From: a virus
Lineage: Duplodnaviria > Heunggongvirae > Uroviricota > Caudoviricetes
Virus record (IMG/VR): IMGVR_UViG_2721755712_000004
Location: 1 to 27,369 of that record
Strand: one strand, 5' to 3'
Length of the DNA stretch: 27,369 nt
Part shown: positions 1 through 3,000 of the stretch, piece after piece
Layout: each line of letters starts with the position of its first letter
How positions within the stretch are numbered: position 1 is the first letter of the stretch
Program-made: the position numbers

Positions 1-3000
1 TTACTCTGCAGGTGAAGTCGGCCACTCAATATCAGGTGCGGTTGATGTATCAACACGGTTCAGCAACACCCGATACTTCTTCCAGGCTTCCAGCAACGAG
101 TTTTCTTCCTCCGTTGCGATCTCCAGATCTACAGCATCCTGAAGTGGCGCAATATGCTCACTGAATTCCTGGATGTAGAACTGTGTGGTGACGGTCTTCC
201 AGCCATTCGGCTCCTGCTGTATCGAAGCATACCAGGCTATTTCAATATCGCTATGCTGCGGCAGCATTTAACCCCTTGTAATTCATCGCCACAATTGATT
301 TAATTCACAAATAAAACTATAACATGGTGAAATTAATGAAAAAAAACACAGATGATGGGGCTAAAATTTACACACCACTTACCCTAAAGCTTTATGACTG
401 GTGGGTTTTGGGAGTATCAAATCGGCTTGCATGGGGATGTCCTACAAAGGAACACCTTCTTCCACACTTTCTGGAACATTTAGGTAACAACCATCTGGAT
501 ATTGGTGTTGGAACTGGGTTTTACCTTACTCACGTACCTGAGAGTAGTCTGATATCTTTAATGGATTTGAACGAAGCTAGCCTGAACGCGGCATCGACAA
601 GGGCTGGGGAATCAAAAATTAAACATAAAATTAGCCATGATGTTTTTGAACCTTATCCCGCGGCATTACATGGTCAATTTGATTCCATTTCCATGTTTTA
701 CCTTCTTCACTGCCTGCCTGGAAATATATCTACAAAAAGCTGTGTAATACGCAATGCGGCGCAGGCCTTAACTGACGATGGAACTCTATACGGAGCCACA
801 ATTCTTGGTGACGGCGTTGTGCACAATAGCTTCGGTCAAAAACTGATGCGCATTTACAATCAAAAAGGCATCTTTTCAAACACAAAAGATTCCGAAGAAG
901 GCTTAACACATATACTCTCAGAGCATTTCGAGAATGTTAAAACCAAGATTAAAGGTACTGTAGTAATGTTTTCCGCTTCAGGGAAAAAATAGCATCCAGC
1001 CGCAGCACGTTCTTGCGCACGACGTGCTGCGGCATAATCTCAATGATTACTCCCTGACAGGGTTCGTAGGCCACTCAATATCAGGTGCAGTTGATGTACC
1101 AACACGGTTCAGCAACACCCTGCATGCCTTCCATGCCGCCAGCAATGATGTTTCCTCCTTCGTTGCATATACTGCTCACCTTTTTCACCCACGATTAACC
1201 AACAGCCAGATTCGCAGGCACGCCCCACCACGGCATATTCATACGCTTGCCATGTCCGAACATTTCAATCCAGCGATATTATGCCTGGGGTGTTCAAGCG
1301 CAATGAAGTACGTATTGTATCTTCGCGATTTTTTATAGGCTAATTGACGCGCAATTCTGAGCGGGGAGCGCACAATCAAACAGCACAGAATGGATCGCTG
1401 ATATTTATCCTTTTGTCGGTTTATCAAACAACAAGAGAGTCAATAGCGGATTGTCCCTACATCCATTTCTGGCGAATCCACTAACCAGAAATTATCTGGC
1501 TTTACAGCCAGAATGATCCAGGCAGTGTTTGTTGTTGATGACCAGGAAGGCAGCACATCGTATGCCGGGTCATCGCAAGAATCACGATAACCGTACTCAT
1601 TAAAAAGTGGAGCCATTGCTGCCACAAGATTCACCGCATTCAGCTCATTACCCAGCTTGCGCTCAAAAAGTGCCACACCTGCCGTTCCTTCCACCCACAC
1701 GCCACGGCTGTGACCACTATAACCATAATCAGGGTGGTACGGTGTGTAACCCGTGGTTTCCCTCGTACCAAATAAAAAACGCCCCATATATTTTCGGCAC
1801 TTAGCCGCTTTCTCAGCATCAATATTGGCAACAAACAATCCGCCCCAGGAAGACTGATCCAGCGCCGCTGCGTTGTCATAGTGGGTTGAATGAACCCCCT
1901 GTCGAAATCGGCCTTCATCTTCCACCCACAGACCTCTGATGATGCTCTTTGCCAGCCTGTCAGCCCGCTCACTGAAACCGTCAAATCCCAGCCGTCCCAT
2001 CAGTTCAAACAAAAACCAGATATCAACGTTATGCTCCAGTGCGCACCATTCGGCGACAAAAGTTTCATCAAAATTGCCGTCCACATAACGCCCCTGCCCC
2101 CCTTTATACAGGCCTTCACGCAGGTCGCCTGGTGTGCTCACCAGAAAAGTATCCAGCCAGGCAATGCCTGCCAATAGCTTTTCTCTGACCCGCGCAGTCT
2201 GAGTACCGTCCGGATACTTCTCCAGATAGAAAGCAAGAGCATAATAAACCCATGCCGCATTGCCCAAGCGGTAATAGGTACGCGGTGACATGGCAGACAG
2301 CCTGTTAACAAAAAACTTTACTCCACCGTTTTCATCAACAAGCGCACACAAGCCCGCAACGTATCTTTCTACAGCCTCATGTCGCTGAACCATCAACGCC
2401 AGTGCTGCCAGCGCCTGGTCATACGTGTAACACCGATCTTTCATCACCCTGATCACTTCGGGGTCTGCGTCCTCCGGCATCCAGTAGCTACGAATGAGCA
2501 GTGGAAACTCCAGCGTTGTGATCCACGCATTATCCTCAATCCGAATAAGACGAAACTGTTTTGCTCCCGTCCAGCAACGTCTGAAATAGAAAGTTCCGTC
2601 ACTATTCAAATTAGCGTCGCCGTTAAAATACTCTCCGGTTGTATAAGCATACATATCGACTTTATACTTTTCAGGTTCAGCCTGTTGCTCTCATCACTGG
2701 TCATGGGAATAAAGTCCGGCTCGAGCGCCTCCAGCCAGAAATGAACACCGGCAGAAGGCGTCAGGCTGTTTATGCGCCCGGAAACCATCTGGGCAAACAC
2801 CTCACCATCGCGCAGCCAGGTACGCAGCATCAGACGTTCCAGCATCGGACGGGTAAACTGCCCGGTGACCTCCGGACTGACAGACCATTCACTCCATCGG
2901 GTGCGTATCTCCGCTGCCAGATCACGGGCAATGGCCCCATTGCGTAATACCGGATGTGGCTCGACAATAATCCCGTTTTTCCCCACCACCCGTTCTTCCA

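Follow-up and report, generated by a model that had tools for sequence, protein, structure and literature searches.

Is the methyltransferase gene at one end of a defective lambdoid prophage a working gene, and what do the pieces of the phage gene tfa on its two sides have to do with it? This question is raised by the IMG/VR virus record IMGVR_UViG_2721755712_000004, a caudoviral sequence of 27,369 nt (the whole stretch that was analyzed, referred to as the window). The feature under study comprises the first ~1,175 nt. An 88-aa open reading frame (ORF; 1-267) and a startless tfa 3' fragment (1047-1175) have the same orientation and flank a gene on the opposite strand; this layout had been described in an initial reading of the sequence (the original prediction), and ORF calls and matches to the Pfam domain Caudo_TAP bear it out. 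We consider it probable that the segment is an intact cargo module of lambdoid prophages, known from the prophage DLP12 of Escherichia coli K-12, and that it represents a self-contained "moron" with the tfa pieces as scars. The arrangement as such is already known: it is annotated in strain K-12 and recurs in thousands of genomes, so that it is nothing new as a sequence feature.

The plus-strand ORF (324-992, 222 aa) is uninterrupted and reaches the cut-offs of the Pfam domains Methyltransf_12, _23, _25, and _11. The profile phrog_2132, which carries the annotation "function unknown", aligns over its full length (1-218/218) to aa 5-222 of this ORF (E 8e-156). Most homologues have a length of 218 aa; they lack a conserved counterpart of ATG 324, whereas the surrounding sequence is conserved. 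For these reasons, the real start is probably ATG 336, and the ORF beginning at ATG 324 would be four codons too long. The gene is thus annotated here as an intact ybcY-family class I S-adenosylmethionine (SAM)-dependent methyltransferase of 218 aa (336-992, plus strand), based on PHROG and Pfam matches and on alignment. The coordinates of the original prediction hold, but the start of the methyltransferase has to be moved to ATG 336 (218 aa), and only aa 32-86 of the 88-aa ORF derive from Tfa. The gene is AT-rich, as had been noted (40.8% G+C, compared to 50-51% in both tfa pieces and in the adjacent fibre gene).

An alignment of 36 sequences (56-98% identity) has 63 invariant columns, and all of them are present in the window protein, including motif I (LDIGVGTG) and D77. 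The uninterrupted ORF, the Pfam domains, and the complete set of invariant residues agree with the claim that the gene is intact and not frameshifted. Pairwise dN/dS values (Nei-Gojobori) were computed for the phage copies among themselves and versus copies from Citrobacter, from an E. coli island, from Salmonella, and from Enterobacter; they range from 0.08 to 0.23 at every usable divergence. The AlphaFold2 model obtained with the 36-sequence alignment (pLDDT 91.4, pTM 0.88) has an N-terminal helical cap and seven beta strands. The low dN/dS, the retention of the invariant columns, and the confident model together argue for a functional methyltransferase gene.

The sequence upstream of the gene (276-330, plus strand) is conserved and carries putative promoters and a ribosome-binding site. 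Two overlapping sigma-70-like promoters can be recognized: TTGTAA (276-281) and TTTAAT (299-304) with a 17-nt spacer, and TTGATT (295-300) and TATAAC (318-323), again with a 17-nt spacer. A Shine-Dalgarno sequence, GGTGA, follows at 326-330. The promoter elements and the Shine-Dalgarno sequence are kept in unrelated contexts, including a 65%-identical chromosomal gene from Enterobacter hormaechei. Genomic SELEX (systematic evolution of ligands by exponential enrichment) on strain K-12 revealed an in vitro site for the RpoD holoenzyme in the spacer between ybcY, the K-12 counterpart of the methyltransferase gene, and tfaX (PMC3946193). The same study predicts TTGATT-17-TATAAC as the ybcY promoter, predicts promoters in both directions of the spacer, and flags H-NS at this position (PMC3946193).

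On its other side, the gene is followed by a G+C-rich hairpin (999-1033) with a perfect 12-bp stem (about -28 to -30 kcal/mol), which separates the convergent methyltransferase gene and tfa fragment. The hairpin lacks a canonical T-run, and the rules of the scanner that we used do not class it as a canonical intrinsic terminator. The sequence past the tfa stop codon of phage lambda aligns to window 1000-1167 with 81% identity, and the hairpin is thus part of the tfa module rather than the methyltransferase's own. In lambda, ea47 comes next after the tfa hairpin, on the opposite strand. The methyltransferase gene therefore lies where lambda has the first gene of its b region, and in the same orientation.

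The gene is found with at least 95% identity in 3831 of the 5426 complete E. coli genomes (~71%), in up to four copies per genome and at 4876 places in total. Matches to some part of window 1-1440 number 14,218 and are spread over 4964 genomes (median 3 per genome); given the 4876 methyltransferase places, most of the remainder are likely tfa ends. The cassette has a single origin and has spread widely. Sixty evenly spaced E. coli matches were inspected: ~52 are full length and have no length change, two have a one-base length change, and six are of the K-12 type, their alignments starting at query base 5 because of a 2-bp deletion. Few substitutions distinguish K-12 ybcY from the window gene, and this deletion is its sole frame-breaking lesion. 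It is located at ATG 336 and the adjoining poly-A tract (AATGAAAAAAAAC -> AAT--AAAAAAAC) and eliminates start codon ATG 336.

These data bear on the idea that the segment is no more than the inert debris of a defective prophage, in which the intact frame is merely a pseudogene that has not yet decayed. The prophage is indeed heavily deleted, with a fusion of portal and fibre gene remnants; the flanking tfa pieces and an adjacent gp25-like gene are broken; strain K-12 and phage Ayreon have lost the gene without obvious harm; and H-NS is flagged at the promoter. However, dN/dS is low at every divergence, also between phage-borne and island copies, the large majority of the sampled E. coli matches are unchanged in length, and the inactivating lesions seen in this sample (n=60) are confined to K-12-type strains and the two single-base indels. 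In addition, plaque-forming phages retain the gene, and its promoter is conserved. We thus consider it unlikely that the gene is a mere remnant.

Relatives of the gene occur well beyond phages. A scan with one genome per species (GTDB species genomes) returned 270 relatives. Enterobacter, Yersinia, Salmonella, Citrobacter, and E. coli have stand-alone homologues of 56-90% identity outside phages, on the chromosome or in islands. The 65%-identical gene from E. hormaechei is located between a liv ABC transporter and a hydrolase gene, and the Yersinia homologue between a PTS/beta-glucosidase operon and an autotransporter gene. An 84%-identical E. coli copy has genes for tannase, TetR, and esterase as well as IS fragments as its neighbours, perC and an autotransporter gene adjoin a 79%-identical Salmonella copy, and a 90%-identical Citrobacter copy is near dinI. 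Relatives of 50-55% identity are found in Pseudomonas, Proteus, Photorhabdus, Xanthomonas, Dyella, and Noviherbaspirillum. The G+C content of the gene is ~39-43% in every host examined.

When the flanking ORFs of the best 80 of the 270 loci were clustered, no neighbouring gene was conserved across genera. Synteny is confined to within genera, and the neighbours therefore give no clue to function. Within plant-associated Pseudomonas (L063-L099), the homologues are syntenic and lie beside crotonase-like, CorA-like, and class I glutamine-amidotransferase-like genes; the Proteus homologues (L072-L095) are also syntenic within their genus. In the simplest reading of these sequences, the gene would be an enzyme gene that stands alone and moves horizontally, and lambdoid phages of E. 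coli would have captured one of its branches together with the promoter. Two matches were obtained in metagenome-assembled genomes (MAG) attributed to Bacillus sp. (L023) and Planococcaceae (L032). These are contigs of 3-4 kb which are 99-100% identical to the E. coli cassette and include ompT-like sequence. Such "Firmicutes" matches are almost certainly due to binning contamination and not to transfer.

What kind of enzyme is encoded? Motif I, an acidic residue that ends strand 2, and a seven-stranded sheet are all present, as is characteristic of the class I Rossmann fold, and SAM-dependent methyltransferase activity is thus predicted for the 218-aa protein. The closest structural neighbours of the AlphaFold2 model are small-molecule methyltransferases. 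The protein shares the fold of UbiE/Coq5, UbiG, PmtA, RebM, DhpI, BelI, and toxin methyltransferases of the Rv0560c type. It has in common with these small-molecule and lipid enzymes the N-terminal helical cap with YDxx...S.N..W, motif I DIGVGTG, and the acidic residue after strand 2. It differs from them in that identity is only 11-21%, with no single nearest relative. The NCBIfam models CpaM, RquA, and PmtA gave 15.7-17.4 bits versus cut-offs of 175-390, so that none of these families was reached. A sequence search of the PDB gave only marginal matches, to UbiG and to juvenile-hormone-acid methyltransferase (E >= 0.0012), and PADLOC returned a weak match to mad2 (E 0.0039, 14 bits), which is far below significance. 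Because the matches from NCBIfam, PADLOC, and the PDB are all sub-threshold, no family was assigned, and the enzyme appears to lie outside every characterized family. The model suggests a small-molecule/lipid (UbiE/Coq5/PmtA-like) structural type within an uncharacterized family, and the substrate would then belong to this class; a protein or a tRNA is also conceivable as substrate. No functional study of this methyltransferase gene was found in the literature.

Phages often carry orphan DNA methyltransferases, and the weak PADLOC match to mad2 might be taken to mean that the enzyme modifies phage DNA, either as an orphan anti-restriction methylase or as part of a defence or restriction-modification system. 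The protein lacks both motif IV ([DNS]PP[YFWH]) and the PCQ motif of C5 enzymes. It has 218 aa and no extra domain in the model, which is too short for a target-recognition domain. After strand 4, the sequence is HDVFEPYP...FD, a pattern of the Methyltransf_11 type. No restriction gene or endonuclease is found among the annotations of the prophage; the original prediction had also seen neither DNA-methyltransferase motifs nor a restriction partner. Close homologues are single chromosomal genes without a restriction partner across Proteobacteria, and the gene runs against the late operon. Taking into account that the PADLOC score is far below significance, a role in DNA modification is extremely improbable.

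We now turn to the tfa pieces. The 88-aa "short tfa" ORF (1-267, minus strand), which is the equivalent of TfaX, is complete, with its stop codon TAA at 3-1. Only aa 31-87 match the Caudo_TAP profile (positions 75-131/131, E 3.5e-26), and BLASTP aligns aa 32-86 with aa 137-191 of the Tfa protein (194 aa) from phage PhiR26_1 at 91% identity. At the nucleotide level, window 20-174 is 93% identical to the 3' end of lambda tfa. Codons 32-86 (nt ~10-174) thus represent the C-terminal part of Tfa, while codons 1-31 (nt 175-267) are unrelated to tfa and accompany the methyltransferase unit. The phage collection has nt 168-275 only in carriers of the cassette and, as a deleted remnant, in phage Ayreon. 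Another phage gene as the source of the first 31 codons was considered and rejected, as only cassette and Ayreon records matched in that collection. A Citrobacter locus (L015) shares window 181-1004 and has the methyltransferase gene without tfa homology.

The end of the short ORF varies between carriers. It has 88 aa with the natural Tfa terminus here, 61 aa in K-12 TfaX, and 101 aa in phages PhiR26_1 and ev243, where an unrelated tail of 23 residues begins at window position 43; in the protein database, short tfa forms range from 48 to ~150 aa. The second piece (1047-1175, minus strand) is startless and is a remnant of the tfaD equivalent. It matches Caudo_TAP positions 95-130 (E 8.8e-13), so that the Tfa relationship of both flanking pieces, as had been proposed, is well supported. 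An in-frame TGA (1176-1178) is immediately upstream of the fragment. Its 5' junction is the same in phages ev243 and 2G7b; in PhiR26_1 and K-12, a full-length tfa occupies the equivalent position. Full-length Tfa has ~190 aa, and the two pieces cover only positions 75-131 and 95-130 of the Caudo_TAP profile. Neither is directly preceded by a fibre gene. When annotating identical DNA, PGAP calls tfa pseudogenes "missing N-terminus" at 1-174 and 1047-1166. Because the 88-aa ORF is chimeric and its 3' end varies between phages, it is probably not functional; its structure would be more in keeping with a recombination joint than with a gene.

The short Tfa and the methyltransferase might instead form a functional divergent pair in tail-fibre biology, with an enzyme that methylates the fibre or Tfa, or with the 88-aa protein as a chaperone or adaptor that consists of the C-terminal domain only. 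In all E. coli phage copies, the two genes diverge around a spacer of 56-68 nt, phrog_2341 spans the 88-aa ORF end to end, and the SELEX study predicts promoters both ways in the spacer (PMC3946193). A pair of this kind is hard to reconcile with a short ORF which has different or truncated C-termini (61, 82, 88, 101 aa) with unrelated tails, which begins with 31 codons that are not Tfa, and which is called a pseudogene by PGAP. Moreover, equally constrained methyltransferase homologues have no tfa neighbour, and the prophage has no remaining tail genes to serve. We consider such a pair to be very unlikely.

The tfa 3' ends form a direct repeat. The original prediction had reported 20-71 and 1069-1120 as near-identical, and they are identical at 50 of 52 positions (96%). 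Comparison of the window to itself extends the repeat to 17-117 (copy A) and 1066-1166 (copy B, within the tfa fragment 1047-1175); these are 83% identical and share no uninterrupted match longer than 21 nt. The similarity of the copies reflects homology, not chance. In addition, the copies themselves are mosaic: the fragment that adjoins the hairpin in phage 2G7b corresponds to copy A of the window (97% identity) and not to copy B. As judged from the alignments, the methyltransferase unit (~276-998) is not bounded by the repeats. Its borders are the lambda-type hairpin downstream of tfa on one side and 93 nt of non-tfa sequence on the other.

The joints of the cassette vary, and they are in or next to tfa. 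On the outer side, homology to the window ends at 17-21 or 43 in various carriers. It ends at 181 and 1004 in the Citrobacter locus L015, at 1032 in three species genomes and in phages Kati, Turner, and PhiR68_2, at 1166/7 in K-12 and PhiR26_1, and at 1229-1314 in ev243 and 2G7b. The original prediction had proposed that the methyltransferase gene was acquired or retained by recombination between tfa 3' ends. Recombination at tfa 3' ends agrees with the variable outer ends across carriers; retention by means of the repeats was ruled out, as direct repeats promote deletion and thus favour loss. With 83% identity and a longest exact match of 21 nt, the repeats are simply poor recombination substrates, which may explain why the cassette persists.

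Our preferred explanation, the cargo module, can be laid out as follows. The working part covers ~0.72 kb (~276-998) and consists of the sigma-70 promoter, the Shine-Dalgarno sequence, and the gene for the 218-aa methyltransferase. It follows directly upon the late operon, where lambda has ea47 in the same orientation, and would be transcribed against the late genes. From this position and orientation, expression is expected from the resident prophage and not during lytic growth, and it may be damped by H-NS. The hairpin (999-1033) would shield the methyltransferase gene and the late operon from each other. The enzyme would work alone, without a partner protein, and its most likely target would be a small metabolite of the host, a xenobiotic, or a lipid, with a function in lysogenic conversion.

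The tfa pieces would not be functional parts but scars of modular recombination in lambdoid right arms. The tfa 3' end is dispersed and highly conserved and would offer ample homology for exchange, and joins recur in or next to it. We infer that one illegitimate join inside the tfa gene of another phage (at ~codon 137) placed the right arm of that phage beside the methyltransferase unit; this would have created the chimeric short tfa and left the tfa of the first phage intact, as seen in PhiR26_1 and DLP12. A later and separate join at 1167-1175, in the lineage of the window, ev243, and 2G7b, would have brought in a new fibre module and left 129 nt of tfa. If the direct repeats had any effect, it would be deletion of the cassette.

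Several points weigh against this explanation. A consensus scanner applied to window 1-1500 returned no promoter or terminator. This scanner accepts only -10 hexamers whose second base is A and whose sixth base is T, and it missed both promoters because TTTAAT and TATAAC violate these rules. The experimental promoter evidence is in vitro and stems from the K-12 allele, and binding of H-NS could silence the gene. The profile phrog_2341 matches the 88-aa ORF over its full length (1-88/88); having a PHROG family of its own could mean that this ORF encodes a real small protein and is not a scar. Finally, the order of the recombination events is a reconstruction.

The first 1440 nt of the window are 100% identical to eight complete E. 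coli chromosomes, and in E. coli 99-3165 the counterpart of the entire window is a defective lambdoid prophage that was inserted between potB and potC. The integrase gene ends at window position 27369, and position 1 is ~230 nt past the potB stop codon. This interval between the stop codons of potB and the short tfa (L001 11770-12000) lies to the left of the window and is host DNA; on the other side, the integrase end (window 26251-27369 region) is 166 nt short of potC.

Head and tail genes have been lost from this prophage. Its remnant of a tail-fibre gene, the last 404 codons (1440-2654, minus strand; phrog_13714), is fused to an N-terminal portal fragment of the lambda family (2675-3307, minus strand), with the joint near 2654-2678. 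One deletion took out the head and tail genes and thereby joined these remnants. The phrog_13714 fibre protein is named "glucosidase family protein" in one RefSeq record. Between the fibre gene and the tfa fragment is a degraded small gene (1176-1439, minus strand), which corresponds to gp25 of ev243 and of 2G7b; alignment with these revealed a deletion of ~62 nt and frame breaks. The intact gp25 proteins have 97 aa (ev243) and 99 aa (2G7b), and their N-terminal half is hydrophobic. This gene is context and outside the cassette proper. Read in the late direction (minus strand), the order is thus fibre remnant, degraded gp25-like gene, tfa 3' fragment, and hairpin, followed by the antisense methyltransferase gene, its promoter, the short tfa ORF, and the prophage end.

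Farther away in the window, a cluster of tRNA genes (Gly, Thr, Lys, Ile; ~9463-9772, minus strand), annotated in an identical RefSeq sequence, is placed between the Q/antiterminator region and the holin-lysozyme lysis cassette. An IS1B element (~21338-22035) is found in the early region, beside ydfA-ydfB-ydfC and dicB, which form a Qin-like block of immunity and cell-division-inhibitor genes. A Hok/Gef fragment and a ParA-family gene are close to this element.

The module is ordinary because it is present in ~70% of complete E. coli genomes, and its value is that of a pointer: to a gene that is common, under purifying selection, conserved with at least 50% identity as far as Pseudomonas, carried by plaque-forming phages, and equipped with a conserved promoter. 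The ybcY family is uncharacterized partly because the laboratory strain K-12 has a dead allele; the window and phages such as PhiR26_1 provide an intact one. The locus also illustrates cleanly how mosaics of lambdoid right arms form around the conserved tfa 3' end. As a tentative idea, which we regard as possible but less than likely, the gene may encode a broadly conserved proteobacterial enzyme with a specific small-molecule or envelope-lipid substrate, captured by phages and selected for altering the physiology of the lysogen, for example by detoxifying a toxin or an antibiotic-like compound by methylation or by changing a surface molecule. If so, this gene, which ranks among the commonest uncharacterized cargo genes of E. 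coli prophages, would be a true lysogenic-conversion factor.

The closest known system is DLP12. In K-12, tfaD (plus strand), ybcY (b0562, a pseudogene, minus strand), and tfaX (b0563, plus strand) are annotated in this order. The DLP12 sequence of K-12 (L002 7979-9122) is 95.4% identical to window 1166-21 over 1146 nt, so that the resemblance to tfaD-ybcY-tfaX, which had been noted in the original prediction together with the pseudogene status of ybcY, is confirmed. Both have in common the gene order, the orientations, the spacer, the promoter, and the hairpin. They differ in that DLP12 has a full-length tfaD, whereas only the 129-nt 3' fragment is found in the window, joined to a different fibre module. 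The ybcY start codon is lost in DLP12, while the window gene is intact; TfaX from K-12 has 61 aa, compared to 88 aa with the natural Tfa C-terminus for the short ORF of the window. Finally, DLP12 runs on into appY-ompT, whereas the prophage of the window ends ~230 nt further, at potB.

The cassette is also found in the viable lambdoid phages PhiR26_1, PhiR29/30, ev243, 2G7b, Kati, and Turner (95-97% identity over 1.0-1.2 kb). PhiR26_1 has the order J-lom-stf-tfa(194 aa)-[methyltransferase, reverse]-short tfa(101 aa)-hydrolase-ompT. Phages ev243 and 2G7b, which belong to Nesevirus, have a fibre module that differs from that of PhiR26_1, and a truncated tfa with exactly the gp25-tfa' junction of the window. 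In contrast to the prophage of the window, the viable phages have intact morphogenesis genes and additional cargo past the short tfa (alpha/beta hydrolase, ompT), and their short tfa departs from the window at position 43 into an unrelated tail. Phage Ayreon (L019 3760-4095) has kept both flanks of the cassette but lacks window 298-956 and thus nearly all of the methyltransferase gene. It is a natural deletion allele of the methyltransferase gene, distinct from the 2-bp lesion in K-12.

Duplicated tfa-family sequences beside a fibre gene are also found in invertible segments (Mu G/Gin, P1 C/Cin, e14 P/Pin). The Gin, Cin, and Pin systems have inverted repeats, opposed fibre/tfa sets, and an adjacent serine invertase, whereas the window has direct repeats, and the annotation of the prophage includes no invertase. 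An invertible segment was ruled out on these two grounds.

Work by Juhala and co-workers and by Hendrix and co-workers, both from 2000, is said to deal with phage "morons". Examples are lom and bor of lambda and gp15 of HK97. The cassette differs from these in that no dedicated terminator is evident, as it abuts the hairpin downstream of tfa, and in that its expression from the prophage is something that we infer. It resembles them as an extra gene which is present or absent between adjacent modules, with its own promoter, a deviant G+C content, and an orientation that is compatible with the prophage state. Presence or absence between modules can be seen directly, as the tfa hairpin leads straight to ea47 in lambda and as Ayreon is devoid of 298-956. 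The gene likewise has a promoter of its own, which is conserved and has an RpoD SELEX site in the corresponding K-12 spacer, and a composition (40.8% G+C) that sets it apart from its surroundings (~50%).

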